Source of the DNA: a virus
Strand: one strand, 5' to 3'
Virus record (IMG/VR): IMGVR_UViG_3300035670_000212
Span: 1 to 61,577 of that record
Length of the DNA stretch: 61,577 nt
This document shows, in pieces, positions 4,385-41,246 of the stretch. The position numbers and the translations under genes were made by a program. Numbering within the stretch: position 1 is the stretch's first letter; each line of letters begins with the position of its first letter. The notes below the pieces were generated by a model. That model had not been told where the DNA came from. It saw nothing but the letters and a program-made list of their open reading frames with translations, and made no database searches.

Positions 4385-5670
4385 GCACCGAGCGCAAAGA
4401 GTTTGAATCGTGGGTGGCGCGCGTGCGCCTTCCTTACTGCGACACGCCTGCCGACCGCGCACAGCAATGGATCGGCTGGCAAGGGTGCCGCGCATCTCCT
4501 GCCGCTGCTGTACCAGAAGGTGCGCTGCCACCGCTGCCGACCGAGAAGTTGCTGCGGATAATTGCCGAGAACACCGGCAAGCGCATCAACCTGAGCCTTG
4601 ACGATCTCGACCAATACCTGTCAGTTGCCCGTGCTGCTGTAGAAGCGGATCGAGCGCAGCGCCCCGAGAATACTCAGCAGCAGGAGGGGTGTGATTCCGC
4701 CCTGCGCGCGGAACCGGCATGGCGCAAGACTCAAGCGCCGTGCTCTGTTTGCGAAGGCCAGAACTACCAGTGTCACCACTGTGACGGTATGGGCATTGAG
4801 CCGCGCAAGATCGATCACTACGGCGACTGCCGGTGCGTCCTGTCGCAATACTGCGACGGCAAATGCAACCCGGTATTTGCCGATGAGTTGGCTTCCCGGT
4901 GCCGCGCGGAGGGCGGCGATGGTGCAAATCGAACTACTACAGATTCTGTAGCAGTTGGGGCGGATCGAGCGCAACAAGGCGAGCCGGTAGCATGGGCCTG
5001 CGCGCTCAACCTTGATCACACTCCGATGGAAACGCCTGATGTCGAATGGGGCGCGGAATGCACATGGGCGCCCGAGTTCAAACCTTTTCCGCTCTACCGC
5101 GCTGCCACCAAGGCAGCAGCAGCTGCTGATGCGCCGAAGTTGTCACGTAACGAGATTCAGGACATGGCATTCGCCTACTGCCCATCGGGGCAGATTGGCG
5201 AGCTGCAAGAGTTCGCTGAAGCGTTGTTGGCAAGGGTCGCTGCACCAGTACCCGATACCGGCGACCGGGCACCTGCTGGGGATGCGCGAGAAGAGGTGCA
5301 GCAGAAGATCGACCTCCAGCTTTGCGTGCTCGAATGGAACCGCGCGCAGAGCAAGCCGCCTATCGAGATCGGGAAGGAATACTTCGTCGCGCAGGAGATC
5401 GCCGCAATGCTCGCCCGCCGCGCATCTTCCACTCCCGCTGTTCCGGGAACGAAGGTAGTGCCGATCACGCCGACCCTGGAGATGGTCAAGGCAGGCGATG
5501 CAACCCTGAACGGGCGCGGAACCTGTGTGCTGGCGTGGCGCGCGATGCTCGCTGCCGCTCCCTCCCATCCATCAGAGGCGAAGACCTGCACCTGCCCAAG
5601 CGGAGACGGATCGTTGCGCTGGCCCTGCCAGGTGCATCCATCAGAGGCGAAAGCCGGGGAGGATGCGTGA
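4381..5670 (+). CDS. Hypothetical protein (429 aa), shares modules with 3362..4384
   Basis: ATGA start/stop overlap at 4381. Shares ...TKAAA(P/A)ADAPK(V/L)S... and ...VP(A/D)TG... segments with the upstream protein. Cys-rich central region. Duplicated HPSEAK at the C-terminus. Confidence 0.7.
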   Translation: MSTERKEFESWVARVRLPYCDTPADRAQQWIGWQGCRASPAAAVPEGALPPLPTEKLLRIIAENTGKRINLSLDDLDQYLSVARAAVEADRAQRPENTQQQEGCDSALRAEPAWRKTQAPCSVCEGQNYQCHHCDGMGIEPRKIDHYGDCRCVLSQYCDGKCNPVFADELASRCRAEGGDGANRTTTDSVAVGADRAQQGEPVAWACALNLDHTPMETPDVEWGAECTWAPEFKPFPLYRAATKAAAAADAPKLSRNEIQDMAFAYCPSGQIGELQEFAEALLARVAAPVPDTGDRAPAGDAREEVQQKIDLQLCVLEWNRAQSKPPIEIGKEYFVAQEIAAMLARRASSTPAVPGTKVVPITPTLEMVKAGDATLNGRGTCVLAWRAMLAAAPSHPSEAKTCTCPSGDGSLRWPCQVHPSEAKAGEDA

Positions 5671-6389
5671 ATGAGCTGGCTCTTTTCGCAGGTGCTGGTG
5701 GAGGAATTCTCGGTGGCAAGCTGCTTGGGTGGACAACCGTCTGTGCAGTTGAACGTGATGCCTACGCAGCACAAGTTTTGGCGCAACGACAAAACGATCG
5801 ATGCCTCCGACCATTCCCTATTTGGTCTGACGTTACGAGTTTTGACGGAAGACCATGGGCAGGAATTGTTGATGTCGTATCGGGCGGCTTTCCGTGCCAG
5901 GATATCAGCGCGTCGGGAAAGGGCGCTGGACTCGATGGCGAGCGAAGCGGACTTTGGGCCGAAATGGCGCGGGTCGTTCGCGAGGTTCAACCTCGATACG
6001 TCTACGTGGAAAACTCCCCAATGCTCACTTCTCGGGGACTCGGAAGAGTTCTCGGAGACCTGGCCGGTATGGGGTTCGATGCGCAATGGGGAGTGCTGGG
6101 CGCTCACCACACCGATGCTCCGCACGAGAGAGAAAGAATCTGGATTCTTGCCGACTCCGGACGCCAGCATGGGCGCGAGGGGGGCGTCAACGAACAAGAC
6201 GAATCGCCGGCCGGATGGCTCAAAAAGGCAAGTAACCATCAACGATATCGTGGGTGGCCGACCGAACCCGACGTGGACCGAATGGGTAATGGGGTGGCCC
6301 ATCGGGTGGACCGACTTAAAGCCGTTGGAAACGGACAGGTTCCAAGAGTGGCGGCAGCAGCATGGGATATTTTAAGAGGCAAATCATGA
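5667..6389 (+). CDS. dcm: DNA (cytosine-5)-methyltransferase, compact 240-aa form
   Basis: GGGGAGG, then GTG 5667. Motifs occur in canonical order: LFAGAGGG (I), GGFPCQDIS (IV), ENSP (VI), HERERIWILA (VIII), RLKAVGNGQVP (X). Confidence 0.85.
   Translation: MNELALFAGAGGGILGGKLLGWTTVCAVERDAYAAQVLAQRQNDRCLRPFPIWSDVTSFDGRPWAGIVDVVSGGFPCQDISASGKGAGLDGERSGLWAEMARVVREVQPRYVYVENSPMLTSRGLGRVLGDLAGMGFDAQWGVLGAHHTDAPHERERIWILADSGRQHGREGGVNEQDESPAGWLKKASNHQRYRGWPTEPDVDRMGNGVAHRVDRLKAVGNGQVPRVAAAAWDILRGKS
5671..6375 (+). CDS. Co-extensive +1-frame ORF (234 aa, Trp-rich) at the methyltransferase locus; candidate second product
   Basis: ATG 5671 immediately follows the upstream TGA (GTGAATG). The frame is open to 14 nt before the MTase stop. 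Protein-like composition with WKTPQCSLL, ETWPVWGSMRNGECW, LPTPDAS and NPTWTEWVMGWPIGWTDL. Confidence 0.4.
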   Translation: MSWLFSQVLVEEFSVASCLGGQPSVQLNVMPTQHKFWRNDKTIDASDHSLFGLTLRVLTEDHGQELLMSYRAAFRARISARRERALDSMASEADFGPKWRGSFARFNLDTSTWKTPQCSLLGDSEEFSETWPVWGSMRNGECWALTTPMLRTREKESGFLPTPDASMGARGASTNKTNRRPDGSKRQVTINDIVGGRPNPTWTEWVMGWPIGWTDLKPLETDRFQEWRQQHGIF

Positions 6390-6748
6390 ACGAAAAAGAT
6401 ATGGTTATTGCGTCAGCAAAAGTCGCTGGAATCAAAGGAAAGTGGGATCAAGGCACCTTCGTTTTGAGGAATCCGATGGCCGATCAATGCAGCTCTTGGA
6501 ATCCTGTTTGGGATGTTTGCGACGCAGTTTTCTTGGCATGCAAATTATCCATGAGGATTTACTTCTCGCTTGAAGCGGTGACGATCTACAAAGGAGAAAT
6601 AACGGTCCAAGAAAATGTGGGTGATGATGGGATGGCTGCTCTGCGGAGTGCAATCGTTCAAGTGGCTGTTGAGTTGCATGAAGAAGACAAGAGATCAAGA
6701 CAACAGCGTCGGGCCGCTCCTGCGCACCCAGGAGAAGAAGGGAAGTGA
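6386..6748 (+). CDS. Hypothetical protein (120 aa), lower-GC gene; possibly NinX/DUF2591-like
   Basis: ATG 6386 overlaps the MTase stop (ATGA). ...SSWNPVWDVCDAVFLACKLSM... resembles the W.P..D..qa..L motif of DUF2591-type phage proteins (weak). Confidence 0.6.
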   Translation: MNEKDMVIASAKVAGIKGKWDQGTFVLRNPMADQCSSWNPVWDVCDAVFLACKLSMRIYFSLEAVTIYKGEITVQENVGDDGMAALRSAIVQVAVELHEEDKRSRQQRRAAPAHPGEEGK

Positions 6749-6784
6749 CCTGTTGCGCTGCTCGCACGACACGATGAAAATATC

Positions 6785-6813
6785 TTGCGTCATAAGTTTA
6801 TCTGATATATATT
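6785..6813 (+). promoter_or_regulatory. Candidate sigma70-type promoter
   Basis: TTGCGT, 17 nt spacer, TATATT, in an AT-rich gap upstream of the 6863 ORF. Confidence 0.45.
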
Positions 6814-6862
6814 GTGTCCATGGGCAGCGCAATGGTGCGCGGCGATAAAAGGAGAAGAGAAA

Positions 6863-7069
6863 ATGAAAGTAGCTGCAATCCTGCTGGTGCTGTGCGCGCT
6901 GGCCGCGCTGGCGATGCACTTGGCATGGCGTGATCTGCCGGAACTGGAGGCGATGACGGACGAGCAGTTGGAGCAGGAATCGTGGTGGGAGGCGCAAAGC
7001 GGTCGCTACCGCAACAAGTACAGCCGCGAGCTGGAGCGCCGCGCCAAGCAGCGCCATGGTGCGCAATGA
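6863..7069 (+). CDS. Small membrane-anchored protein (68 aa)
   Basis: AAAGGAGAAGAG precedes ATG 6863. N-terminal hydrophobic helix VAAILLVLCALAALAM. Confidence 0.6.
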   Translation: MKVAAILLVLCALAALAMHLAWRDLPELEAMTDEQLEQESWWEAQSGRYRNKYSRELERRAKQRHGAQ

Positions 7070-10484: not shown

Positions 10485-10988
10485 ATGGCAGCAAAAGGCA
10501 AAACTGAGAAAGAAACCGCATCAAGAAGCGGCTACTCCCAAGAGGTTGCTGATGAGATTTGCGAGCGCATGTCGAATGGCGAACCATTGCGCGAAATTTG
10601 CCGGGATGACCGGATGCCAGCTTGGCGAACTGTGTACGCATGGCAGGAGGCAAAGCCAGAGTTTCGTGCACGCATCGCATACGCGCGCGAGATGGGCGAG
10701 GAAGCCATTGCCCAAGATTGTATGCGGATTGCTGATACGCCACTGCTAGGTGAAGAGGTAGAAGAGAGCGCCAACGGGATGAAGATCAAGCGTGGCGACA
10801 TGCTTGGACATCGCAAGCTTCAGATTGAAACTCGGCTAAAGCTGCTAGCGAAATGGAACCCGCGAAAGTGGGGTGAAAAAGTTGATGTTAATCATGGCGG
10901 GCAGACAGAAAACCCGCTCGCCATCCTCATGAGCCAGGTGGCGGGGAAGACGCTGAAGCCCGTTGCCAATCCAGAGGATGATGAATGA
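10485..10988 (+). CDS. terS: Terminase small subunit
   Basis: YSQEVADEICERMSNGEPLREICRDDRMPAWRTVYAWQEAKPEFRARIAYAREMG matches the HTH-type TerS family pattern. Immediately upstream of and overlapping terL. Confidence 0.8.
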   Translation: MAAKGKTEKETASRSGYSQEVADEICERMSNGEPLREICRDDRMPAWRTVYAWQEAKPEFRARIAYAREMGEEAIAQDCMRIADTPLLGEEVEESANGMKIKRGDMLGHRKLQIETRLKLLAKWNPRKWGEKVDVNHGGQTENPLAILMSQVAGKTLKPVANPEDDE

Positions 10989-13342
10989 GCGCAGTTTTGG
11001 GTTATCAGCCAATTGACCAAATGGACGAGGATCAGTTCAGCTCCGCGCTTGCTGACCCGATGTTTCGCTTATCCAATTTATATTGGATCAAAACTAAAAC
11101 GGAAAGTGATGACGAGGGCGACGAAGGTTTGGTGGTTCGCTTCAGGCCCAATCAATACCAGAAAAGGCTTCTGAAAAGGCTGCATCACCGCAATATAATT
11201 TTGAAAGCCCGCCAATTGGGCTTCTGTTGCGACCCTGCAACGCGAGTTCTCACCGCTGACTTGCGCTGGGTTCCTATTGGCGCGTTACAGGTCGGACAGG
11301 AAATCGTCGCTGTCGATGAACATCCTGCCGGTGGGCGCGGCTCCGAGCGCAAGATGCGCACCGCTACTGTGCGGGCAGCAGCCAAGGTGCACCGCAAGGC
11401 ATACCGCATCACTTTTGATGATGGCCGTAGCGTAACGTGTACCGATCAGCACCCATGGCTATCCAAAAAGGCGGGGACTAGTGCTGAATGGCGCAGCTTG
11501 AGTGGCAAGGGAAATCAGGTCGTTGGGAAGCTCAAAGTTGGTACGAATGTGCGATGGGTTGCCAAGCCATGGAGCGACGAGCGCACATTTGATGACGGCT
11601 GGATGGGAGGCATGCTTGATGGCGAGGGAAGCATGGCGAAGCCGTGCAGTAGTGGTGCAGAAATCAATGTCTCGCAGGTGCAAGGCCCAGCTTTCGGGCG
11701 CATGGAGATGTACCTGTCGCAGCGTGGCTACCACTACCGTACGGAAGAAGATCAGCCGGTTCGCAAGAGTAAGTTCGGCAAGACAGCAGTGCATAAACTG
11801 TGCGTCAGCCGCATGGACGAGTTGTTTCGGCTGATAGGCCAAACCCGCCCTATTCGCTTCCTTGGGCGTCATTTCTGGGAAGGCAAGGGCCTGCCAGGCA
11901 AGCGCAATGGTGATGTTGGCTGGGCCAAGATCACGCACATCGAAGAGTTGGGCGAGCAGACGATGATCGATCTGCAAACTTCAACTGGAACCTATATTGC
12001 CGAAGGTTTCGTGTCACACAACACGACCCTGATCCAGATTCTCTTCCTGGACTATGCCCTGTTCACGCCCAACGTGCGCTGCGGCGTGATCGCGCACACG
12101 GATGACGCGGCGCTGAAAGTGTTCAAGAAGATCAAGTTCGCATACGACCGCCTGCCCGACATCCTGAAGGCATCGGTTCCGCTCAAGACCTGCAACGCCC
12201 ACGAAATGGAGCTTGCGAACGGCTCGGTGCTGACGGTGGGCACGTCGATGCGCTCGGACACGATCCACTATCTGCACATCTCCGAATTCGGAAAAATCTG
12301 CGCCCAATTCCCGCTGCGCGCCGAAGAGGTCATTACCGGCACGATCCCAGCCGTGCCCAATAGCGGCGTGATCTTCATCGAATCGACCGCCGAGGGGCGC
12401 GACGGGGCATTCTTCAAGATGAGCCAGCGCGCCGAAGCGCTGATGCACCAGGGGAAGGCGCTCACGCCCAAGGAATACCGTTTCCACTTCTTCCCATGGC
12501 ATGACGCCGATGAATACCAGATCGACCCGGCAGGCGTCATCCTGTCGGCGCGCGACAATGAATATTTCGATCTGCTTGAAGCGAAGGTCGGCAAGACGAT
12601 CACCCCGGCGCAGCGCGCATGGTGGATTTCCACGCGCGACAACGACTTCGCGGGCGAAGACTCGAAGATGTGGCAGGAATACCCGTCCACGCCCGAGGAA
12701 GCATTCCAGCAGTCCACCGCTGGCACCTATTACGCCGTGCAGCTTGCCAAGGCCCGCAAGGAAAAGCGCATCGGCAAGGTTCCCTACATGCCAGGCATCC
12801 CTGTCAATACCTTCTGGGACATCGGCCACGGCGACGGTACCGCGATCTGGTTCCACCAGCGCGTCGGACAGAATGACCACTTCATCAACTTCATCGAGGG
12901 ATGGGGCGAGCCTTATGCGCACTTCGTCAAGGAGATGCAAAAGCTCGACTACGTCTGGGGCACGCATTACCTGCCGCACGACGGCAATCATGTCCGCCAG
13001 GGCGAACTGGAGAACCTGTCGCCCAAGCAGATGCTGGAAAAGCTGGGCCTTCGACGCCTGGAAATCGTACCCGTCGTGGCCGAACTCCAGCACGGCATCA
13101 GCGCCGTGCGCGACGCTTTCGCCTCCTACTGGTTCGATGAAGAACGCTGCAAGGAAGGCATCGCCCACATCGAGCTGTACAAAAAGAAGTGGAACAACAC
13201 GACACAGACCTTTACGGACCAGCCGCTGAAGGATATTCACACCGAGGCGGCGGACGCCCTGCGGCAGCATGCTCAAGGCTTCAAGGTCTCGAACGGGCCG
13301 GATAGCTGGAAGCGCCCACAACGAAGCTGGAAGTCCAGCTGA
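10985..13342 (+). CDS. terL: Terminase large subunit, interrupted by an intein
   Basis: The extein junction ...ILKARQLGF|TTLIQILF... restores a terminase Walker-A-type KARQLGF(S/T)T box. A C-terminal nuclease-like region is present (DIGHGDGTAIWF ... HYLPHDG). Confidence 0.85.
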   Translation: MSAVLGYQPIDQMDEDQFSSALADPMFRLSNLYWIKTKTESDDEGDEGLVVRFRPNQYQKRLLKRLHHRNIILKARQLGFCCDPATRVLTADLRWVPIGALQVGQEIVAVDEHPAGGRGSERKMRTATVRAAAKVHRKAYRITFDDGRSVTCTDQHPWLSKKAGTSAEWRSLSGKGNQVVGKLKVGTNVRWVAKPWSDERTFDDGWMGGMLDGEGSMAKPCSSGAEINVSQVQGPAFGRMEMYLSQRGYHYRTEEDQPVRKSKFGKTAVHKLCVSRMDELFRLIGQTRPIRFLGRHFWEGKGLPGKRNGDVGWAKITHIEELGEQTMIDLQTSTGTYIAEGFVSHNTTLIQILFLDYALFTPNVRCGVIAHTDDAALKVFKKIKFAYDRLPDILKASVPLKTCNAHEMELANGSVLTVGTSMRSDTIHYLHISEFGKICAQFPLRAEEVITGTIPAVPNSGVIFIESTAEGRDGAFFKMSQRAEALMHQGKALTPKEYRFHFFPWHDADEYQIDPAGVILSARDNEYFDLLEAKVGKTITPAQRAWWISTRDNDFAGEDSKMWQEYPSTPEEAFQQSTAGTYYAVQLAKARKEKRIGKVPYMPGIPVNTFWDIGHGDGTAIWFHQRVGQNDHFINFIEGWGEPYAHFVKEMQKLDYVWGTHYLPHDGNHVRQGELENLSPKQMLEKLGLRRLEIVPVVAELQHGISAVRDAFASYWFDEERCKEGIAHIELYKKKWNNTTQTFTDQPLKDIHTEAADALRQHAQGFKVSNGPDSWKRPQRSWKSS
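11225..12022 (+). mobile_element. Intein (266 aa) in the TerL ATPase P-loop, with a LAGLIDADG-like endonuclease segment
   Basis: Begins with Cys (CCDPATRVLTADL...), ends ...AEGFVSHN, and is followed by Thr (+1 nucleophile). Internal WMGGMLDGEGSM resembles a LAGLIDADG motif. Confidence 0.8.
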
Positions 13343-31505: not shown

Positions 31506-34500
31506 GTGGCGACCATCTCTCCCTTCCTCAAATCGCCATTCCAAGAACTGATCGACCGTCAAGAGCCGCAGCCGATGCCGGGCAGCGATCCGGTCGTCAA
31601 CGTCGAGATGCCGCAGATCGAAGCTGCGCCCGTCGTGCAGGCCGTGCCGCAGCCCGAGCCGCAGACGTTCGCACCGAAGTCGGGCAAAAAGGCCAGTCTC
31701 GCGCCGCCGCCCGAACTGCGCCCGCTGTTCGCCGCGACCGCCGAGCACTTCGGCGTACCGGAAAACGTGCTGATGGCTATTGCTCAGCAGGAATCGAGCT
31801 ACAACGCCAATGCAGTCAACAAGGAAACTGGCGCATCGGGGATTGCGCAGTACATGGGCGCTACGGCTAAGGCATTGGGTATCAATGCACTTGATCCGAA
31901 CGAAGCTATCCCAAATACCGCAAGGCAAATCCGCGAACGCCTGGATAATGGCGCAAGTCTGGAAGACGCGATCAAGGAACACTTCGCAGGTCCGAACCGC
32001 AAGCTTTGGGGCAGCAAGACTGCCGCCTACGGTAAGGAGGTACTGGCAAAGGCCGAGCAGATCGGCGCGGAACTGTACGGCGAAGCGCCGCAGCAAGCCG
32101 AGCCAGAGAAGCAAAACGCCTTCGCCGCCGACCGCATGGCGCGCGCCGAATACGAAGCCAATTTCAAAGCGATGAACCCGAAGGCGTCACCGGATGCGCT
32201 GGCCGCCGTGATGGCGCAGTACGACGAGCAGGCCAGCGCGCGCACCAAGGCCAAGGCTAATTCGGTGCAGGACCGCTTCAACAAGCTGAAGTCGCCCGAG
32301 GCGATGTTTGACGAGCGCCTGAACGCCAAGTTGCAAGCGAAGAATCGGGGCGTGGCGCAAGTCGCGCCAGAGCGCCAGCAGCCGGTGGACGTGAACAGCG
32401 TTACGCACGAGCGCCCCGGCGTCATGGAGCAGGCGCAGGGCGACTTCGGGCGCGGCATCAGCAATCTTAAGGCGCTTGGTTACGGCGTGGGCGGCCTTGT
32501 CGCCGAGCAGATGGGCAACGACGAAGCGGCCACCCGCATGTTAGACGAGTACGTCGCCATTCAGGACGACATCGCCAAGAACAACCCGGCCACCATCGGC
32601 ACGTATAAAAACGTCAAGTCGCTGGGCGACGCCGGGCGCTACGCCGTCGAGGCGGTCGCGGAAAACCTGCCGATGCTGCTGCCGTCCCTTGTCACGGGCG
32701 GCATCGGCGCGCAGATTGGCAAGAAGGCCGCAGAGCGCGTCGTTGCGGGCATGATCGAAACGCAGGTAGCCAAGGGCGTGGCGCGCGAGGTGGCCGAGAA
32801 GCAGGCTGCGCAATTCGTCGCCAAGCGCATCATGCAAGGCTCTATTGCAGGCGCTGCCCCGGCCTCCATCGGCATGGAATCCGGCTCGATCATGGGCGAC
32901 ATCTACCAGGAGACTGGCGAGAAGCGCCCCGGCCTGGCACTGGCGGGCGGCATTCCGGCTGGCCTGCTCGACACGATCCAGCCCGTCATGGCGCTGCGCA
33001 AGATCGCTGGCCCTGTCGTGGATGAAGTCGCGGGCGGCATCGTCAAGCGCATGGGGCGTGAAGCTGGCCTGCAATTCCTGACCGAAGCAGGCACCGAGGG
33101 CTTGCAGACCGTGATCGAGGAATTCGCAGCAGCCAAGGCAGCAAACCGTGATATGTCCACCGACCACATCATCGACGCCATGCTCAAGGGCGGCATCGGT
33201 GGCGGCGTCATGGGCGTGGCGTCGCAAGGCGTGAACGAGGCGCGCGGTGCGATTAAGGGGCGGCCTGCTGCAAGTCCACCACCGGGCCAAATCGACGCCG
33301 CACTCCAGAAAAATCAACAGGTTAGCGCGACTCCTACCCGGCCTGCTGGACCATTGACCACCGCCCTGTCGAGTGCCGCCAACGTTCAGGCTGACGATGA
33401 GGGCTTCACGGCGCAGGTTCTGGGCGACGACGGCCAGATGTACACACTGGACAGCCGCACGGGCGTGGTCGCCCCAGCAGAACCCGCCGCGCCGAGCGGC
33501 CCGCTGGAAGCCGCGATTAGCGATGCCGCCGAGCAGCATGCAGCCGATCCCGCCCCCGCCCCGATCCAACCGGAAGCAGAACCGGCCGCCCCTGACTATA
33601 CCGCAATGGCGCTGCCGGACCTGCAAGCACGCCTGAAGGACATCGCGGAGCAAGCCAAGGCCAGCCCGCAGGCGCGCCAGCAGCTCATGCCAGAGCGCAA
33701 GCAGATAGAACAGGCCGTCAATGCCAAACTCAAGGAAGCGAAGGAGGCGTCGAAGCCCGCCGAGGAACCGCTTGCCGCAGGTCCATTCGAGGACATCAAG
33801 GCCGCGAACCGCATGATGCTGCGCTTCGTGGAATCGACCGGCACGCCGCACGAAGTCGTAGGCGAGGAAAAAACTGGCTACAAGGTAAGAAAATTAAGTG
33901 GCAGCGTAGTAGAATACGGGCATGAAAAAATACCCGCCACCAACAGGAATCGCAGCGACCTTAACGTTCGTAACGTGGAGGTCGATCCGACGCAGATGCT
34001 ACGACAAGGGCGATACCAGCTACCACAAGTACGGGGCGCTGGGGATCGAGATGTATCAGCCTTGGAGGGAAAGTTACCACCAGTTCGTAAGGGACGTGGG
34101 GGAGCGCCCGAGCAAGGAATACACGATGGATCGAATCGACGGGAAGAAGGGCTACTTTCCGGGGAACGTGCGCTGGGCGACCAGAAAGGAGCAAGCGCAG
34201 AATCGGTCAAGCAACGTCCTTCTGACATTCAACGGGAAAACGCAAGTGGCGGTCGAGTGGGCGCGGGAGATGGGGATGTTGCCGGTAACTCTGATGGCTC
34301 GACTCAGGAAGGGTTGGACGACCGAGCGCGCCCTAACGGAGCCCGTAGCAAAAAGGACGCCAAAGCCCAAGTAAAACCTCAACCAACCCCTCACTCCGAG
34401 GCCAACGATGGAATCGACGCTGCTGCACAAGGAAGAACTGATGGACTCGGACGAAGCGGCGGAACTGCTGATCCAGTACGGGTTTCGGACGACGGAGCAG

Positions 34501-37500
34501 GTCAACCATCTGGAATCGTGCCTGGCGCAAAACCTGATGGCGCTGCCCGAGGACGCGGAACTGACGCTGCAACTGATCGAACTGGTGCAGATGTCGCCGC
34601 CAACGCTGACCAAGCACTGAGCGACGATACGCGCCCGAAAGTCAACCCCTACGCCAACCGCCGCTTCAGTGCGCCGGAAAAGGGTGAAGCCTTCATCGAC
34701 AAGGAAGGGATTGACCGCAACCATTTTGAAGTCGTGCAAACCGGCCCGGCGCGCTGGCAAGTGCTGCCGCGCCTTCCTAAATCCGATGCTGCGGAGGTGA
34801 AAACGAATGTGCCCGAACGCCAGGAAGTTCCAGAAGAAGCGCCGGTTGCGCGCGGAGAGGAAAGCGCGCAACAAGGTGCTGCCGCTGGAAGCGAAGCCGC
34901 AGGAGCAGGAAAAGCCGCAGCGCCTGCCGCGCCAGCAGTAGCGGGAAAACCCAAGCGCCCGCTGTACCAGCGCGAAATCACGAACGCCAAACAGGAAGAG
35001 GCCGTACGCAAGGCCGCCGAATCGCTGGCAGCGCGCAAGGCAAAAAAGGACGGTGGCACGAAGCTGGCCGACAAGGACGGCAAGCCGCTGGTCGTTTATC
35101 ACGGCAGCACCGAGAAATTGCCCGCAAAGATGCGCAGCGGCGAGCCGGTCTACGTGACTACGGATCGCGGCTATGCCGACTCGTTCAACCCGCTGCGCGA
35201 GGGCGAAACCGCTTCCTTCACCGCTGACATCCGCAACCCGTACTACGCCACCGAGCAGGGCGAAATCGACGGTATCAAGTACAGCAAGGAAGCCATCGCC
35301 AAGCTGAAGGAGCAAGGCTATGACGGGGCAATCTACAAAGGCGGCAAGGGGCCGCAGCAGGCGCTCGTCTTCGATGCCGATCAACTAACTCGCGTGGCCG
35401 AGCCGCAGCAGGCGGCGGCAGAACAACCGCCTGCACCAACAGCCGCACCAGCCTATCGCCTGCCGGAAGATGTGGGCACGGATTGGCGTCGCGCCGAGGC
35501 GCTGGACTTCGAGCCGGACGCGCGCCAGAAGATCGTCATGGATGCGGTCGAGAAGGCACTTGCTAATGGCGTCTTCTACAACCGTGACATGGACGAGAAG
35601 GTGGCCGAAGCCTTGGGCGTGGGCGCTGACGTGCGCAGCCGCAAGAATTCCGGCACCGAAGGCGGCGACTTCGGTTATGACGTGTACATGGCACGCAAGG
35701 CGGTCGAGGCCAAGCAGCGCCATGCGGAAATCGCCCGCGTGCAAGCCGAGCAGAACTTCAAGGCTGGCGACGTTCTGGGTACCCTGATTTTCAACGACTT
35801 CAAGGTCAACACGGGCGTTACCGTCGAGGCAGTCAACGGCGACCAGATCAAGCTTCGCGGCAAGCGTGGCGCGTATTCGGTCACGATGGAAACCGGCCCG
35901 ACGAACATCAAGTATGCCATCGAGCGCGCGCACGAAAAAGGCAAGCGCAAGGACTCTTACGAGGAATTCATTGCATCGCGCAATGAAGCCGCACCAGCCA
36001 AGCCAAAGCGCAAGCCTGCTGCAAAGAAGGCTGCGCCAGAGCAAGCAGAGGAAGCGGAAGGCGTGCGCTACTCTGTTTCTGGCGACATCGGCGCTGTCTC
36101 GCATCTTCGTGACGGCATCGGCGCGCCCGTGCGCGTGGAATCCGTAGATGAGAACTTCGGCACCGGCACCGCGTTCGTGGTCGAGTTCGACAACGCAACC
36201 GTCCAGATGTCGGTACGCGAAGAGTCTGACGGCATTTACGTGATCGGCCTTCAGGCCAAGCAGCCAGGCGACCTGACCAAGCCAGTGCGCGGCACCGGGC
36301 GCGGGCGCGAAATCATGGAGTCGCTGAAGCAATACGCCGACCAGACTGGCAAGCCGCTCAACATCATGGGTGTGACCGAAGGCGGCGCGAACTTCTGGCG
36401 CTCGCTGCCGTGGCTGCACCCCTCGCCCGTCTCGCTGGAGATGGCGGGCGACATGCAAACCGACGAGCGCGGCTTCATCTATCAGCCGCAGGGCGTGCGC
36501 TACTCTGTAAGCGGAGATGTGACAGATAGCCCGGCTTTCCGCCGCTGGTTTGAAGGCAGCGCTGTGGTGGACTCGGGCGGTAAGCCGCTGATGGTTTTCC
36601 ACGGCACCGACCAGGATTTCAATTCGTTTGCCAAAGAAAAACTTGGCGAAGCGACCGGCGCACAGTCGGCGGCGCAGGGCTTCTTCTTTGTCTCGCGTCC
36701 CGACGTGGCAACCAGCTACGCAAACTACGCGGCCATGCAAGCGCCGGTTCGCCGTGAACTTTTGCAGTCCGAGCGTGCTGAGAAACGCGGCGACTGGGAT
36801 GGCTACGATGCCGCGCTTCAGCGCGCCGAGGAACTGGAATCGGAAATCGCTGACCGCCCGCAGCGCGGCCAGAATGTCCTGCCAGTCTACCTGAGCATCA
36901 AGAACCCCGCCATCATGGACGCGGAAGGCGAATTGTTCATGTCGATTCAGGACAAGATCAATGCCTTCATCAAGGTAGCGAAGCGCAAAGGCCACGATGG
37001 CGTGATCTTGAGAAACCTTGATGATGACCCGAATTTCTCGGATCGCGTCGGGGATCATTACATCGCATTCCAGCCCGAGCAGATTAAATCAGCAATCGGC
37101 AACAACGGCGAGTTCTCGCCGGATAACCCTGACATCCGTTATTCGGCAGCGGCCATGGTGGAAGACGCCCTGCCAGCCGTCTCTCCCTTCATCCAGGCGC
37201 TGGCCGATGCGGGCGCAATCGAACTGCATGCCGACGCTTCGACGCTTCCCGTAAAGGGCCGCGTGCCGCAGGGCGTGCAGGCGCTCACCACGGCAGACGG
37301 TCGCATCCACGTCGTCGCCAGCGCGCTCAACAGCAACGCCAAGGGCATCGTCCTGCACGAAGCCTTCCACGCTGGCGGCAAGGCGCTCGTCGGCAGCAAG
37401 GCATGGAGCGACCTGATGGCGCGGCTCGGCTCGCTGTACCGCCAGTATGAAAAGTCGGGCGGCGCGGCGCGCACGTTCTGGGACAAGGCCCGCGCTCGCG

Positions 37501-40500
37501 TAGCAACTGCAAAGGCCAAGGGCGCTGTCGCCGATGGCATGGAGCACGAAGAATTCGGCGCTTACGCCATCGAGGAATACGAGAATGCCCCGCTGACGGT
37601 CAGGAAGTGGGTCGATGACCTGCTGGGCGCGGTGAAAGCATGGGCGCTGCGCCGCTTCGGGCGGCAACTTGGGCAGGTCACGCCTGCGCAGCTGTCGGCG
37701 CTGGCAAAGCTGGCGCTGCTGGACGTGCAATCGAGCCGGGCGCAGGAAGCCTTCTCGACGGACGACCGCCGCGCGGAAGATCGCGGCACCGAAGACCGCC
37801 GCCAAACTGTCCAATTCGAGGGCGAGCGCCGTCCAATCGAAAACTCGCGCGGCACCCTGATCGCCGAGGACATGAACAAGCAGCTGGCCTTCTATCGCTG
37901 GTTCAAGGATTCGCAAGTCGTGGACGAGCAGCAGCGCCCGCGCGTAGTTTTCCACGGCACCAACGTTGACTTCGACGCATTCAAATCCGACAAAACCGGA
38001 TCGTCGTGGGATGCTGGAAAGCTTGGCAAGGGCTTCTATTTCAGCACCGACCCGCGCCTTGCAAGCAGCTATGCTACGAATGCCCGCGCCAAGTCGCGCG
38101 ACGATGCGCCGAGCATCATGCCGGTGTACCTGTCGATCCAGAATCCGCTGGAAATCGGCCCTCTCGACTGGCAAGCTGGAGAAAACTTGTGGGACAAGTT
38201 GCGTGACTTTTCCGAGCAGGCTGGCATCGACATCGATCCGGTAAGCGACCCAGACAGCAATCAGCCTAATCCGGAATGGTCGGAGCCGTTCCGTGACGCC
38301 CTGAAGCGCTTTGGCTATGACGGCGTGATGCTGAAGTTCAGCGATGGACATCAGGAGTTGGTAGCCTTCGATCCCGAGCAGATCAAGTCGTCGGTCGGCA
38401 ATTCCGGCTCGTTCTCGTCCGATACTACGGACATCCGCTACTCGGTAGCGGGAGACCCGCAGCCGCGCGAACTGACGCCTGACAATCAAAGTCTGCTGCG
38501 CCGCGTTCAAGAAGTAGGCCAGGATCGAATGAACCGCATCAATCAGATTCAGAAAACGATTGAGCGCGAATTTGGAGTGGAGATTGCCGAGGGCGACGAC
38601 ACGTACCTGAAGGACACGAACCGCCCCGGCAAGGTATCGGCGCGCCAAGAGGACGGCGAAGACCGCCTGCTGAAGCCGATGGTGAAGAAGCTGGCAGATT
38701 CGGGATACAAGCTTTCCGATCTGGAAGAACTTCTGCACGCCATGCACGCCAAGGAGCGTAACGCCTACGTCGCCACTATCAATCCGAAACACGACCCAGA
38801 CAGTCCCGAATACGAGGGAACGCAAGGCTCGGGCATGAACGATGATAAGGCCGAGCGCATCATCGAGAAATACGAAGGCGCGGCGGAACTGCACCAGATC
38901 GCCAATCAGGCGCGCGCCATCGCAAAGCGCACGCTCGACCTTCAACTCGAATACCAGCTCATCAACAAAGAAACGCATGAGCGCCTGACCAAGACCTACG
39001 AGTATTACGTTCCGCTCAAGGGCGACGGAGAATACGGCGTCAAGATCAAGCGTGCGATGGGCCACGGTGAACGCGACGAGAATATCCTTGAACACCTGTC
39101 GCGCGACTACAACCAAGTCATTGCCAAGGGCGAGCGCAACCTTGTCGTCCAGTCATTAATCCGGCTGGCGCTCAAGTTCCCCGACGATTCGACCTGGACC
39201 GTGCGCGTGCCGCCAAAGGGCCGCTACGTCGCGGGCAAGGTCTACAACATCGTCCATGTTGGACCCGGCGCACCGACGAACGGTGAAACCGTGGCGTCCT
39301 TCGAGTCGCATTCGCAAGTGACGGCATGGCTGGAAGCGAAAGGCGCGGAAGCTCGCCACTACAAAGTCCTCGATAGCAACGGCGAGCAGGTTGTCGAATT
39401 CACGAAGCCGTTGCAAGACAACGAGGTCATGGGCTACATCCAAGGCGACGCCGTGCGAATGCAGATTCACGACGAGGCCCTGGCAAGGCAAATCCGCCCG
39501 CTGGACGTGAAGCAGTTGAATATGTTCGTGCGCGGTCTAGCTAAGATTCATCGTTGGTATGCCACCGTCTACACCGCCTACAGCCCGACCTTTATCTTCA
39601 CGAACGTGATCCGCGACGCGGGAAGCGGAACCATCAACATGCTCGGCAACTATGGCGCTGGTGTGGCGGCTGAAGCATGGCTCAAACACTATGCCAAGGC
39701 GTCGGCGGCGCTGCTCTACTGGTCCAAGTCTCACAACGCACCGCAAGGCAAGACGGGCCAGTACCTGAACGAGTATCGCGCCCAAGGCGGCAAAACTGGC
39801 GCTGCGCACATGAGCGACCTTGAACAACAGCGCGAATCGTTCCAGCGCATGTATGACGATGCCTACGGCGCATTCAAGTATGCCAAGGATGGGCGCGTGG
39901 ACAAGGCAGCCTTGATTGCGGCACGCAAGACCGTCATGGGGCTGGCAAAGACCATCGAAATGGCGAACGTGGCAACCGAGAATTCGCTGCGACTGGCGCT
40001 GTTCATCACCCTGAGGGAGCGTGGCGTCAGCCCTGGCAAGGCAGCTGCGGCAGCTAAGAATGTCACGGTCAATTTCGACCGCAAAGGAACTGCCACTGGC
40101 TTTATCAGCGCCTTCTACCTGTTCTTCAACCCGCGCGTGCAAGGTGCGGCGAACGCTCTGCGCACCCTCACCAGTGGAAAGCACAAGTACCAGGCATGGA
40201 CAGCACTTGGCATGATGGCTACCGCAGGCTACTTCATGGCGGCGGCAGGCATGGATGAGGACAAAGACCGATGGCTGGGCACGAAGTGGGATACCCGCTC
40301 GAAGAAGCTGATTTTCTTCAATGGTGACAAGACCATCGAAGTTCCTGTAACGCAGGAGTATGCCCCAGCAATGGCTGCTGGCGTGGCACTTGCGGAAGTC
40401 GTGCGCGGCGAGTCGCCGACCAAGAGCGGCGCTCGTCTGATGGCGTCCATTGCTGACGCCTATGTGCCAATCGACGTTGCACACCCGGATAGCGACAACC

Positions 40501-41246
40501 CGATGCTTGACTTCATGCTGGGAATCATGCCAACGAATGCCCAGATTCTTCTTCGTTCGGCCAATAATCGCAGTGCATTCGGTTCGGAAATCGTGCCGGA
40601 ATCCGACAACACCAAGGACCAGCCTGACAATTTCAAGATGAACCGGGCGACCAAAGGCACCGTCTACGACCGCGCTGCTCAAGTGATCGCCAGCGGCAAG
40701 CTGCCCGTACTGGACAAGACCATCGGCGAAACTTTCGGCAACCGCAAGTATGCAAACGACTGGTCCAAGATCAGTCCCGAAACTCTCAAGATGCTCTGGG
40801 GTACGGCAGCGGGCGGGCTGGGCAACTTCGTGGCCGACTCGGCGGGCCTTGGTGTATTGGCGAAGGAAGGTGCGCAGCAGATCATTAGTGACGACGTGCC
40901 AGTGCTAAAAGCGTTCTACAAGACGAATGACTCCAAGCCACTGCGCAACCGCTTCTACGAGCTTGCCGATGAGTCCAAGCGACTTGATGCGCAGGTCAAG
41001 CAGGCTATCAAGCAAGGTGACGAACTGGCCGCCCGAGACATCATGCAAGGCGACGATGCGATCTTCTGGGCGCTGGTCGAGGCAAATGAGGCGACACGCA
41101 AAATCACGGCACTTCGAGCGGAGCAGGCTGTTGCTATCAACGCGGATAAAACCCTGTCCGTTCCTGAGAAGCGCGCAAAGCTGAAGGAGCTTGACGCACT
41201 GATGGAGCAGGACTACCGCAAAGCAATTAGTAACTTCAGGCCGTAA
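31506..41246 (+). CDS. Giant polyvalent virion (ejected) protein, 3246 codons as one open frame
   Basis: Uninterrupted frame. Contains an SLT domain, a Gly-rich hydrophobic region, three ART-like modules, a GNAT-like Q..G.G segment, an HExxH peptidase motif and a long C-terminal domain. The start (GTG 31506 after GAGG) is uncertain. 33.89-34.62 kb looks like an out-of-frame insert. Confidence 0.75.
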   Translation: MATISPFLKSPFQELIDRQEPQPMPGSDPVVNVEMPQIEAAPVVQAVPQPEPQTFAPKSGKKASLAPPPELRPLFAATAEHFGVPENVLMAIAQQESSYNANAVNKETGASGIAQYMGATAKALGINALDPNEAIPNTARQIRERLDNGASLEDAIKEHFAGPNRKLWGSKTAAYGKEVLAKAEQIGAELYGEAPQQAEPEKQNAFAADRMARAEYEANFKAMNPKASPDALAAVMAQYDEQASARTKAKANSVQDRFNKLKSPEAMFDERLNAKLQAKNRGVAQVAPERQQPVDVNSVTHERPGVMEQAQGDFGRGISNLKALGYGVGGLVAEQMGNDEAATRMLDEYVAIQDDIAKNNPATIGTYKNVKSLGDAGRYAVEAVAENLPMLLPSLVTGGIGAQIGKKAAERVVAGMIETQVAKGVAREVAEKQAAQFVAKRIMQGSIAGAAPASIGMESGSIMGDIYQETGEKRPGLALAGGIPAGLLDTIQPVMALRKIAGPVVDEVAGGIVKRMGREAGLQFLTEAGTEGLQTVIEEFAAAKAANRDMSTDHIIDAMLKGGIGGGVMGVASQGVNEARGAIKGRPAASPPPGQIDAALQKNQQVSATPTRPAGPLTTALSSAANVQADDEGFTAQVLGDDGQMYTLDSRTGVVAPAEPAAPSGPLEAAISDAAEQHAADPAPAPIQPEAEPAAPDYTAMALPDLQARLKDIAEQAKASPQARQQLMPERKQIEQAVNAKLKEAKEASKPAEEPLAAGPFEDIKAANRMMLRFVESTGTPHEVVGEEKTGYKVRKLSGSVVEYGHEKIPATNRNRSDLNVRNVEVDPTQMLRQGRYQLPQVRGAGDRDVSALEGKLPPVRKGRGGAPEQGIHDGSNRREEGLLSGERALGDQKGASAESVKQRPSDIQRENASGGRVGAGDGDVAGNSDGSTQEGLDDRARPNGARSKKDAKAQVKPQPTPHSEANDGIDAAAQGRTDGLGRSGGTADPVRVSDDGAGQPSGIVPGAKPDGAARGRGTDAATDRTGADVAANADQALSDDTRPKVNPYANRRFSAPEKGEAFIDKEGIDRNHFEVVQTGPARWQVLPRLPKSDAAEVKTNVPERQEVPEEAPVARGEESAQQGAAAGSEAAGAGKAAAPAAPAVAGKPKRPLYQREITNAKQEEAVRKAAESLAARKAKKDGGTKLADKDGKPLVVYHGSTEKLPAKMRSGEPVYVTTDRGYADSFNPLREGETASFTADIRNPYYATEQGEIDGIKYSKEAIAKLKEQGYDGAIYKGGKGPQQALVFDADQLTRVAEPQQAAAEQPPAPTAAPAYRLPEDVGTDWRRAEALDFEPDARQKIVMDAVEKALANGVFYNRDMDEKVAEALGVGADVRSRKNSGTEGGDFGYDVYMARKAVEAKQRHAEIARVQAEQNFKAGDVLGTLIFNDFKVNTGVTVEAVNGDQIKLRGKRGAYSVTMETGPTNIKYAIERAHEKGKRKDSYEEFIASRNEAAPAKPKRKPAAKKAAPEQAEEAEGVRYSVSGDIGAVSHLRDGIGAPVRVESVDENFGTGTAFVVEFDNATVQMSVREESDGIYVIGLQAKQPGDLTKPVRGTGRGREIMESLKQYADQTGKPLNIMGVTEGGANFWRSLPWLHPSPVSLEMAGDMQTDERGFIYQPQGVRYSVSGDVTDSPAFRRWFEGSAVVDSGGKPLMVFHGTDQDFNSFAKEKLGEATGAQSAAQGFFFVSRPDVATSYANYAAMQAPVRRELLQSERAEKRGDWDGYDAALQRAEELESEIADRPQRGQNVLPVYLSIKNPAIMDAEGELFMSIQDKINAFIKVAKRKGHDGVILRNLDDDPNFSDRVGDHYIAFQPEQIKSAIGNNGEFSPDNPDIRYSAAAMVEDALPAVSPFIQALADAGAIELHADASTLPVKGRVPQGVQALTTADGRIHVVASALNSNAKGIVLHEAFHAGGKALVGSKAWSDLMARLGSLYRQYEKSGGAARTFWDKARARVATAKAKGAVADGMEHEEFGAYAIEEYENAPLTVRKWVDDLLGAVKAWALRRFGRQLGQVTPAQLSALAKLALLDVQSSRAQEAFSTDDRRAEDRGTEDRRQTVQFEGERRPIENSRGTLIAEDMNKQLAFYRWFKDSQVVDEQQRPRVVFHGTNVDFDAFKSDKTGSSWDAGKLGKGFYFSTDPRLASSYATNARAKSRDDAPSIMPVYLSIQNPLEIGPLDWQAGENLWDKLRDFSEQAGIDIDPVSDPDSNQPNPEWSEPFRDALKRFGYDGVMLKFSDGHQELVAFDPEQIKSSVGNSGSFSSDTTDIRYSVAGDPQPRELTPDNQSLLRRVQEVGQDRMNRINQIQKTIEREFGVEIAEGDDTYLKDTNRPGKVSARQEDGEDRLLKPMVKKLADSGYKLSDLEELLHAMHAKERNAYVATINPKHDPDSPEYEGTQGSGMNDDKAERIIEKYEGAAELHQIANQARAIAKRTLDLQLEYQLINKETHERLTKTYEYYVPLKGDGEYGVKIKRAMGHGERDENILEHLSRDYNQVIAKGERNLVVQSLIRLALKFPDDSTWTVRVPPKGRYVAGKVYNIVHVGPGAPTNGETVASFESHSQVTAWLEAKGAEARHYKVLDSNGEQVVEFTKPLQDNEVMGYIQGDAVRMQIHDEALARQIRPLDVKQLNMFVRGLAKIHRWYATVYTAYSPTFIFTNVIRDAGSGTINMLGNYGAGVAAEAWLKHYAKASAALLYWSKSHNAPQGKTGQYLNEYRAQGGKTGAAHMSDLEQQRESFQRMYDDAYGAFKYAKDGRVDKAALIAARKTVMGLAKTIEMANVATENSLRLALFITLRERGVSPGKAAAAAKNVTVNFDRKGTATGFISAFYLFFNPRVQGAANALRTLTSGKHKYQAWTALGMMATAGYFMAAAGMDEDKDRWLGTKWDTRSKKLIFFNGDKTIEVPVTQEYAPAMAAGVALAEVVRGESPTKSGARLMASIADAYVPIDVAHPDSDNPMLDFMLGIMPTNAQILLRSANNRSAFGSEIVPESDNTKDQPDNFKMNRATKGTVYDRAAQVIASGKLPVLDKTIGETFGNRKYANDWSKISPETLKMLWGTAAGGLGNFVADSAGLGVLAKEGAQQIISDDVPVLKAFYKTNDSKPLRNRFYELADESKRLDAQVKQAIKQGDELAARDIMQGDDAIFWALVEANEATRKITALRAEQAVAINADKTLSVPEKRAKLKELDALMEQDYRKAISNFRP
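31730..32080 (+). other. Lytic transglycosylase (SLT) domain of the giant protein (approximate bounds)
   Basis: ...VLMAIAQQESSYNANAVNKETGASGIAQYMGATAK... carries the catalytic E-S and the AQ.M signature. Confidence 0.8.
33922..34374 (+). CDS. Homing-endonuclease-like DNA-binding protein (150 aa), nested out of frame in the giant ORF
   Basis: ...TWRSIRRRCYDKGDTSYHKYGALGIEMYQPWRESYHQFVRDVGERPSKEYTMDRIDGKKGYFPGNVRWATRKEQAQNR...GWTTERAL matches the free-standing phage family usually annotated HNH/AP2-like (from memory). Confidence 0.65.
   Translation: MKKYPPPTGIAATLTFVTWRSIRRRCYDKGDTSYHKYGALGIEMYQPWRESYHQFVRDVGERPSKEYTMDRIDGKKGYFPGNVRWATRKEQAQNRSSNVLLTFNGKTQVAVEWAREMGMLPVTLMARLRKGWTTERALTEPVAKRTPKPK
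34408..34620 (+). CDS. Small acidic protein (70 aa), nested, same frame as 33922
   Basis: GAGG, 6 nt, then ATG 34408. Strong G/C third-position bias in this frame. Confidence 0.45.
   Translation: MESTLLHKEELMDSDEAAELLIQYGFRTTEQVNHLESCLAQNLMALPEDAELTLQLIELVQMSPPTLTKH
35076..35387 (+). other. ART-like module 1 of the giant protein (approximate)
   Basis: KPLVVYHGST...VYVTTDRGYADSF...DIRNPYY...QGYDGAIY...ALVFDADQL. Paralogous to modules 2 and 3. Confidence 0.5.
36576..37145 (+). other. ART-like module 2 (approximate)
   Basis: KPLMVFHGTDQDFNSF...GFFFVSRPDVATSYA...LPVYLSIKNP...GHDGVIL...IAFQPEQIKSAIGNNGEFSPDNPDIRYS. Confidence 0.55.
37356..37370 (+). other. HExxH zinc-metallopeptidase motif (HEAFH) in the giant protein
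   Basis: ...AKGIVLHEAFHAGGKAL... Confidence 0.6.
37929..38444 (+). other. ART-like module 3 (approximate)
   Basis: RPRVVFHGTNVDFDAF...GFYFSTDPRLASSYA...MPVYLSIQNP...GYDGVML...VAFDPEQIKSSVGNSGSFSSDTTDIRYS. Confidence 0.55.

Follow-up and report, generated by a model that had tools for sequence, protein, structure and literature searches.

We analyzed a 61,577-nucleotide (nt) stretch of viral DNA (IMG/VR record IMGVR_UViG_3300035670_000212, positions 1 to 61,577; here called the window) in which a giant virion gene carries two smaller genes nested in another reading frame of the same strand. The host gene is an open reading frame (ORF) of 3246 codons at positions 31506 to 41246 of the plus strand, on which all features described here lie unless noted, and no stop codon occurs anywhere in its frame 0. 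Within it, in the +1 frame, are a 150-amino-acid (aa) ORF related to HNH-type phage homing endonucleases and, downstream, an acidic ORF of 70 aa. Our comparisons support the conclusion that the 150-aa ORF is of foreign origin and was inserted into a linker between modules of the giant gene. They also support the view that the host frame has been held open across it by selection and that the read-through serves as linker. We think it probable that the insert is not spliced and that frame 0 is translated straight through both nested genes.

Evidence for an out-of-frame insertion in a giant virion gene

The predicted product of the giant ORF is a polyvalent, DarB-like virion protein. Polyvalent proteins are very large and contain unrelated enzymatic modules and low-complexity linkers. 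Pfam searches with the giant protein recovered ART-PolyVal (E=5.5e-57, in three stretches), LPD38 (E=3.7e-20), and SLT (E=8.6e-11). The gene follows a phage structural block (terminase, portal, major head protein, internal virion protein, PAPS reductase, and virion structural proteins), and the structural gene order of the window is that of Ralstonia phages GP4 and Gamede.

The original prediction, made by inspection of the sequence, had described the giant ORF as remaining open across an out-of-frame cassette at 33880 to 34625, and every element it listed was present in the ORF list and sequence where it had been placed. It had also located the coding signal of this stretch in the +1 frame, and two measures agree. 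A codon-usage scan of the whole 9.7-kb giant ORF found frame 0 beaten by another frame solely at 33906 to 34625, the frame-0 codon score being above zero up to ∼33880 and again from ∼34566, and within the nested stretch the periodicity of GC content over codon positions follows the +1 phase. The foreign arginine codons it had pointed out are real: AGG, AGA, and CGA make up 10 of the 16 Arg codons of the 150-aa ORF, whereas CGC makes up 137 of 178 in the giant ORF outside the insert. Finally, the flanking segments, which it had taken for copies of one small module, are true paralogs, and the element sits in the linker between them. Module A (33786 to 33887, ending in ...FEDIKAANRMMLRFVESTGTPHEVVGEEKTGYKV), delimited by the frame-0 codon score and the GP4 alignment, is the last host-coded segment 5′ of the insertion; it aligns with GP4 aa 698 to 833 and, at 53 to 62% identity, with the contigs L095, L099, and L100. 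(Numbers preceded by L denote related loci: L001 is GP4, L002 is Gamede, and the others are contigs.) Module B (34659 to 34763; RRFSAPEKGEAFIDKEGIDRNHFEVVQTGPARWQV), where the host coding signal returns, was recognized by BLASTP to GP4 residues 1033 to 1066.

The element itself is ∼486 nt long (33888 to 34373; 162 host codons). It consists of an AT-rich leader of 34 nt (33888 to 33921), 150 codons, and a stop at its 3′ terminus, so that only 34 to 36 nt lie outside the endonuclease ORF (33922 to 34374). A TAG at 33910 to 33912 shuts the +1 frame 5′ of the ATG at 33922, and the TAA at 34372 to 34374 overlaps the final bases of the element. A comparison with relatives lacking the insert, which the original prediction had proposed as a way to define its boundaries, was informative. 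The nearest relatives around the insertion site are L095, L099, and L100/L111 (53 to 62% identity over residues 640 to 786), and DNA alignment with the HNH-less L095, L099, and L100 isolated a single clean block of ∼500 nt unique to the window. Because these three contigs align on both flanks without the block, and because of the foreign Arg codons, the 150-aa ORF is best read as an insertion. Deletion of 33888 to 34373 restores ...GYKV|KPQPTPHSEANDGID, for which the L099 counterpart is ...GHFVIQPIGGKPYGID; the reconstructed empty allele of the window reads ...GGCTACAAGGTAAAACCTCAACC....

A short imperfect direct repeat is present at the element ends (AAGGTA at 33882 to 33887 and AAGTA at 34369 to 34373), within which the boundaries are ambiguous. 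It may reflect chance or be a trace of insertion.

The small ORF is a conserved neighbor found with or without the endonuclease

The original prediction had assigned both +1 ORFs to one mobile cassette. The endonuclease part does behave as an insertion of ∼486 nt; the 70-aa ORF (34408 to 34620; 13 D+E versus 3 K+R) does not belong to it, since homologs of 72 to 75 aa are present in the same place and frame in at least seven related giant genes that lack the HNH ORF. Among these, in the HNH-less L095, L099, L100/L111, and L122, the homologous ORF has 73 to 75 codons and occupies this linker, again in the +1 frame. Three further full-length members (P0096 to P0098) came from a search of 1.84 billion representative proteins, and their contigs (L125 to L127) show the same nesting within an uninterrupted giant-protein frame. 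On this comparative evidence, the small ORF is a resident overprinted gene and not part of the mobile element.

The conserved frame is that of the small ORF. In tblastn searches, it gave E values of 5e-12 and 6e-9; when this DNA was translated in frame 0 instead, the values were 0.16 and 0.002. Across seven lineages, pairs of sequences are on average 46% identical when read in the small-ORF frame and 35% identical when read in the host frame. Substitutions at positions 1, 2, and 3 of the small-ORF codons number 610, 477, and 653; this pattern, the reverse of that expected if the host frame alone were read, indicates that the DNA is read in the small-ORF frame. Translation signals are retained as well. 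The GAGG Shine-Dalgarno box that the original prediction had noted after the TAA is present at 34398 to 34401, 6 nt before the ATG at 34408, and encodes Glu-Ala in the host frame. In L095, L099, L100, L125, L126, and L127, a GGAGG, AAGGAG, or GAGG box precedes the start by 6 to 8 nt. In most copies, the host frame reads the box as Gly-Gly or Glu-Ala, and the position of the stop is conserved. By our own count in the alignment, 26 nt separate the small-ORF stop from a conserved CC[CG]TAC in the window; the spacer measures 17 nt in L099, 20 in L100, and 32 in L095. All four spacers are 2 modulo 3, from which it follows that insertions and deletions there preserve the host frame.

Members of this family are acidic proteins of 70 to 75 aa with the consensus MESxLL..LMD.DEAA..L...G..., encoded with or without a neighboring endonuclease (L095, 6417 to 6638; L099, 6657 to 6884; L100, 6306 to 6533; L125, 358 to 576; L126, 171 to 398; L127, 105 to 332). 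Codon usage of the 70-aa ORF is host-like, Leu being CTG in 14 of 14 codons. Searches of Pfam, PHROGs, PDB profiles, and, by tblastn, phages found no match for it, and a single-sequence AlphaFold model was weak (four helices; predicted local distance difference test [pLDDT] score, 60). The long phmmer matches P0095, P0099, and P0100 were discarded as repeat-driven false positives, and no support was found for the name "transposase" given to the 70-aa product by JGI.

Nested copies recur in other loci, some with empty sites

The nested endonuclease is not confined to the window. It recurs in GP4, Gamede, L007, L044, and L081, always in the +1 frame of its host. In GP4 and Gamede, a 184-codon ORF of the family (42 to 43% identical) lies inside genes of 3224 and 4639 aa annotated as "DarB-like antirestriction," in a cassette of ∼488 nt, similar in size to the window element. 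These ORFs occupy 11910 to 12464 of L001 (GP4) and 11887 to 12441 of L002 (Gamede), where RefSeq annotates the giant coding sequence only; the GP4 ORF has no stop of its own in the cassette and extends 33 codons into host sequence. L007 carries the endonuclease in another polyvalent ORF, with InPase, helicase, and methyltransferase domains.

The remaining two copies are nested within Hint-like elements: in L044, an HNH ORF at 5773 to 6408 of a family A DNA polymerase gene (3744 to 6545), and in L081, an HNH ORF at 5773 to 6423 of an SNF2 helicase gene (4662 to 6977) whose frame is also free of stops. The two Hint-like elements are homologous to each other (35% identity, E=2e-25) and share the motifs C..T/E.LT, T.DH, VYD, and HN followed by C. 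Profile hidden Markov models provided little evidence that they are inteins (TIGR01445 at E=0.011 for one, no match for the other), and we tentatively regard them as intein-like by their motifs and mutual homology.

Sites lacking the endonuclease are known for both insertion positions. The window element follows module A. The GP4 element follows the paralogous module B, its counterpart (GP4 residues 1033 to 1066) directly preceding the HNH cassette in GP4 and Gamede; each genome therefore shows the other's site empty. Contigs L086, L089, and L107 are ∼95% identical to GP4 upstream of the cassette, and L091 to L098 and the Burkholderia contig L117 are more distant. After ...FEIKPK, all of these carry an in-frame module of ∼125 aa (VAEGMERF...DGHIIDGHHQ...SPSAQ), and the cassette-bearing and module-bearing versions rejoin at AADDAAARWSRA. 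Because this module (e.g., L089, 6278 to 6628; L091, 1628 to 2004) lies exactly at the GP4/Gamede cassette position, the cassette appears to replace the module in the GP4 lineage rather than simply being added. The module resembled a ParB-like domain at first sight; Pfam gave no match, and we left it unnamed. A scan of genome contigs yielded one Burkholderia contig with a giant gene and without HNH. This patchy distribution and insertion polymorphism are consistent with site-specific cleavage and homing.

A trivial explanation for the frame switch could be an assembly or sequencing artifact, produced by compensating indels or a chimeric contig. The independent contig L083 (JGI Ga0310127_012282) begins within the last part of the HNH ORF, at 34341, which would fit an assembly break. 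The same contig, however, confirms the 3′ junction and the small ORF at 99.98% identity over 34341 to 40315. The out-of-frame layout is also found in the genomes of the isolates GP4 and Gamede as well as in further independent contigs, and the HNH ORF has a start codon and all the family-invariant residues in a frame of its own that is bounded by stops. An artifact is thus hardly credible. Assembly of L083 may have broken off here because the site is variable among members of the population.

The host frame is kept free of stop codons

Read in frame 0, the nested genes encode residues 794 to 1040 of the giant protein (33885 to 34625). The original prediction had called this translation a low-complexity sequence rich in Gly, Arg, Asp, and Ser, and its composition agrees: the 247 residues are 15% Gly, 12% Ala, 10% Arg, and 10% Asp, are rich in Ser, and include 15% hydrophobic residues, compared with 26.5% in the rest of the protein. 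They contain the peptides LSGSVVEYGHEK, NVEVDPTQMLR, GGAPEQGIHDGSNR, EEGLLSGER, and VGAGDGDVAGNSDGSTQEGLDDR. No homolog of the frame-0 insert translation was found among 5.8 billion proteins.

We asked how often such a frame would be open by chance by permuting the synonymous codons of the +1 ORFs, keeping the +1 proteins intact, and counting stops in frame 0. Each host codon here consists of position 3 of one nested codon and positions 1 and 2 of the next. In consequence, a high GC content at third positions (GC3) lowers the number of host-frame stops, though not enough to explain the open frame. With both +1 ORFs shuffled, frame 0 was open in 1.5% of trials (no stop observed, mean of 3.4), and with the HNH ORF alone shuffled, in 4%; the expected number of stops was 2.7 to 3.4 across the window tests. 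The other alternative frame was not depleted (9 stops observed, 8.6 expected). The five other copies behave in the same way: the probability of an open host frame was 0.02 for GP4, 0.006 for Gamede, 0.006 for L007, and 0.002 for L044, and for L081 (40% GC), in which 16.6 stops are expected, none of 5,000 shuffles left the frame open. The opposite phase was never open in shuffles, its stops hinging on nonsynonymous positions, which accounts for the constant +1 phase of the nested copies.

An empirical control gave the same picture. We fetched 80 IMG/VR loci encoding endonuclease relatives, among them 62 distinct free-standing copies. The frame corresponding to the host frame contained 1 to 25 stops in the free-standing homologs (median, 13; 1 to 12 in the 12 GC-rich ones). 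Only five fetched loci had no stop in that frame, and each of these five genes is enclosed by a much longer ORF on the same strand.

The nested ORFs of GP4 and Gamede differ at 15 of 453 nt. In the HNH frame, 9 of these differences are synonymous and 6 are nonsynonymous (random expectation, 22% synonymous); in the host frame, 2 are synonymous and 13 are nonsynonymous, and none creates a host-frame stop. Purifying selection thus acts on the nested frame, whereas in the host frame only the absence of stops is maintained. In the shuffles, hydrophobic residues were also fewer in the observed read-through than expected in the polyvalent hosts (P=0.001 to 0.03) and not in the intein hosts, a result that is suggestive of avoidance of hydrophobic residues.

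A different interpretation is that the insertion split the gene, with an N-terminal product running into junk and a separate C-terminal product restarting downstream; high GC3 would then account for the open frame of 245 codons. Long spurious ORFs are indeed common in the GC-rich window (e.g., minus-strand ORFs of 410 to 675 aa overlapping the giant gene), the host frame over the small-ORF segment by itself is open in 27 to 100% of shuffles, and splitting by nested HNH genes has been published (mobE in Aeh1 nrdA; see below). A split is improbable in view of several other results. With no stop at all in frame 0, an N-terminal product cannot end at the insert, and module B offers neither a start codon nor a ribosome-binding site for a restart. 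Stop depletion of the HNH part is significant and specific to the host frame in all six copies, including the AT-rich one for which 16.6 stops are expected, whereas none of the 62 free-standing controls is without a stop there. The four spacers downstream of the small ORF, moreover, all preserve the host frame.

The original prediction had offered two ways in which the insert might be tolerated: as a linker read through under selection against stops, or as an intron. The first is favored by the window shuffles (P=0.015 to 0.04) and by the five other copies. The second, a group I or group II intron with an endonuclease ORF that is spliced from the mRNA, leaving the open host frame incidental, did not hold up. 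HNH-type phage homing endonucleases frequently reside in group I introns, and the 5′ leader is AT-richer than its surroundings. Searches with Rfam covariance models, however, gave no match at E≤10 in 33000 to 35500 and none at the gathering score in the window, GP4, and L007 loci. The 34 to 36 nt of non-ORF sequence are too little for a ribozyme core, the 3′ flank encodes a conserved protein, and the RNA folds no better than shuffled sequences (z=+0.8). Stop depletion in six independent copies would be needless if the insert were spliced, and in L044 and L081 the arrangement lies inside Hint-like protein-splicing elements, which require an unbroken polypeptide. We consider an intron very unlikely.

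Protein splicing of the window insert was also considered and rejected. Its frame-0 junctions (...GYKV|RKLS... and ...AKAQV|KPQP...) have no Cys, Ser, or Thr, the segment has no Hint blocks and no terminal His-Asn, and the same methods readily found a known type of intein in the terminase gene of the window (see the final section). In the absence of Hint blocks, the extra residues could not be removed by protein splicing and would therefore stay in the mature protein.

A last possibility involves ribosomal slippage. Six consecutive A residues (33925 to 33930), a potential slippery site, lie exactly at the overlap of the frames, where the HNH ORF begins. A programmed +1 frameshift at this run would fuse the N-terminal 800 residues to the endonuclease for delivery with the virion, making the nested ORF an extension, and nuclease domains are frequent in polyvalent proteins. 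This too is highly improbable. No similar run stands at the corresponding position in GP4, Gamede, or L007, where Shine-Dalgarno boxes precede the endonuclease's own ATG; the endonuclease family is overwhelmingly free-standing; and a frameshift would leave unexplained why selection keeps the host frame open farther downstream.

The nested protein belongs to a large phage family

The original prediction had placed the 150-aa protein in a widespread family of free-standing phage genes, usually annotated as HNH/AP2-like homing endonucleases. The family stands; the HNH label has proved softer (Arg71 and the missing Pfam HNH match are taken up below). The 150-aa ORF matches phrog_3377 at E=1.1e-44 over residues 13 to 145, and tblastn found matches in 761 phage records. 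In the family records and contigs that we inspected, the genes are separately annotated and intergenic, and the two nearest homologs with inspected contigs (52% and 55% identical) stand free between other genes. Membership in phrog_3377 is firm.

An AlphaFold2 model built from a 65-sequence alignment was of high quality (pLDDT, 94). Foldseek comparison with BFVD returned "HNH/HTH homing endonuclease" proteins (E down to 4e-16; template-modeling score, 0.81 to 0.85), and helix-turn-helix (HTH) matches were found at the C termini of relatives. Foldseek of the same model against PDB found no solved structure below E=1, the HNH enzyme PacI appearing at E=8, and the best match of the family profile to PDB was weak (I-HmuI, 1u3e; E=0.07). 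Across the motif DRID...NVRWAT..EQ..N, the model places strands at 68 to 71 and 83 to 86 followed by a helix at 88 to 93, an arrangement for which the PDB matches are weak only. Residues N82 and N94 of the HNH motif (the structural Asn and the metal-ligand Asn) are invariant in the family. Membership among catalytically canonical HNH enzymes is not firm, and nuclease activity is putative. Behind the label "HNH," the proteins of this large phage family may have another chemistry or a role that is not catalytic.

A model for insertion, read-through, and homing

From these observations, we infer the following course of events. A free-standing-type, HNH-like homing gene would have inserted on the same strand and in the +1 frame into the linker that joins two small repeated modules. 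The insertion point would have been ∼25 nt 5′ of the ribosome-binding site from which the already nested 70-aa ORF is served. No splicing would take place; ribosomes translating the giant gene would pass both nested genes in frame 0, adding ∼245 to 247 linker residues. A modular, linker-rich polyvalent protein could tolerate such an additional linker, rich in Gly, Arg, Asp, and Ser and poor in hydrophobic residues. Because the host protein must stay intact, selection would have purged third-position T contexts of the endonuclease ORF that give host-frame stops. The endonuclease and the small protein would each be made separately by internal initiation on the shared mRNA, and the endonuclease would cleave empty alleles and then be copied into them by repair.

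Several observations weigh against this model or against parts of it. Arg71 of the endonuclease (codon 34132 to 34134), which is invariant in 23 and in 65 family members, aligns with the catalytic His of I-HmuI. That general base, which other HNH enzymes have as well, is the first H of HNH, within a DH dipeptide of I-HmuI, and we take it to be His75; the dipeptide is DR in the window family. The window endonuclease had no Pfam match at E≤0.1, and HNH_3 was reached by 1 of 23 relatives (E=0.014). No convincing Shine-Dalgarno sequence is found in the leader (33888 to 33921), unlike in GP4 and L007, where AAGGAG and GGAGAG stand right before the HNH start codons, and a promoter and terminator scan found no promoter-like site near the endonuclease ORF. 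Stop statistics are uninformative over the small-ORF segment, as seen above, and translation through the nested genes is deduced from the statistics of the sequence. The boundaries of the element were drawn from relatives only 53 to 62% identical in protein and are uncertain by a few codons; no closely related insert-free allele was found by megablast against the phage collection, with the giant N terminus in IMG/VR, or with the pre-insert segment in metagenome contigs.

A broader reading, on which we find the balance even, is that the linkers of polyvalent proteins are safe harbors for same-strand overprinted genes. The HNH-like family would then represent a third way, beside introns and inteins, of residing within an indispensable gene, stop-free in the host frame and donating a disordered linker, and its Hint-nested copies a route from free-standing to intein endonucleases.

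Relation to known nested and mobile endonuclease genes

The closest precedents come from DNA methylase genes of mycobacteriophages, in which the ShiLan domain and Pacc40 gp60 represent hidden HNH insertions (Arsenault, Gosselin, and Gogarten, 2025, Genes 16:178, PMC11855218). The ShiLan insertion has its start codon 18 bp in and a TAA within its last four bases, and the in-frame translation of insertions of this type has no homologs and is predicted by those authors to form a loop or be disordered (PMC11855218). As in ShiLan and Pacc40, an HNH-type ORF lies out of frame in a host ORF without internal stop, no intron or intein signature is seen, the distribution among relatives is patchy, and the in-frame translation is without homologs; as in ShiLan, the start codon is a few tens of nucleotides in (18 bp in ShiLan, ∼35 nt in the window) and a TAA stands at the 3′ end. 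The differences are equally clear. The host phages are GC-rich relatives of Ralstonia and Burkholderia podophages here and Mycobacterium phages there, and the host gene is a giant polyvalent virion gene rather than a nonessential methylase. To judge by domain descriptions only, the window protein has a W..RC module, a DR..N..N motif, and a C-terminal HTH, whereas ShiLan has a zinc-finger-flanked HNH. A second, resident nested gene adjoins the insertion here, and selection for the open frame, which was only noted there, has been measured. The case appears to represent the architecture described in 2025 with a different endonuclease family and phage lineage, a giant virion host, measured selection, and a resident nested neighbor.

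A preprint by the same group (Gosselin, Arsenault, and Gogarten, bioRxiv 10.1101/2025.01.02.630785) describes noncanonical inteins whose homing endonuclease is encoded out of frame. The resemblance lies in a free-standing-type endonuclease within a tolerant central region of a host that must stay open, and L044 and L081 match this description. The window differs in that its host segment has no Hint blocks, no Cys, Ser, or Thr at the junctions, and no terminal His-Asn.

The element also shares features with mobE and the T4-type seg and mob genes: it is an intronless and inteinless HNH homing gene with its own start, located within or beside a conserved phage gene. The mobE insertion in nrdA of Aeromonas phage Aeh1, a 2007 finding of Gibb and Edgell, reportedly splits the gene into two polypeptides that reassemble. 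In the window, by contrast, the host frame is continuous and apparently translated through. The host protein resembles other DarB-like polyvalent proteins (ART-PolyVal, LPD) in being giant and multidomain with a module content that varies among relatives. We know of no report of same-strand genes nested in the linkers of polyvalent proteins, and a full-text literature search, which was not aimed at polyvalent or DarB proteins by name, returned none.

These findings bear on annotation and on the evolution of overlapping genes. Gene callers cannot report same-strand nested genes, and the endonuclease and small ORF would be systematically missed; the small ORF is annotated only on truncated contigs. 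The class defined in actinobacteriophages in 2025 would be extended to proteobacterial phages, to a different endonuclease family, and to a large virion protein that is probably indispensable, with quantitative evidence for a selected open host frame, which the original description merely noted. A homing event of this kind would instantly give a protein ∼160 new linker residues, and a conserved protein appears to be encodable wholly in the linker of another, which has a bearing on how polyvalent proteins gain modules and on the origin of overlapping genes. The relatives GP4, in which the corresponding region lies at 44.2 to 44.8 kb, and Gamede are cultivable, and our inferences are thus open to standard experiments.

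A canonical intein elsewhere in the window

The terminase large subunit (TerL) ORF of the window (10985 to 13342; 785 aa) contains an in-frame canonical mini-intein at ∼11222 to 12022 (CDPATRVLT...EGFVSHN|T). This intein, which served as the positive control for intein detection, was recovered with the NCBIfam intein-containing model at E=2e-16 and with Pfam Intein_splicing at E=4e-7.

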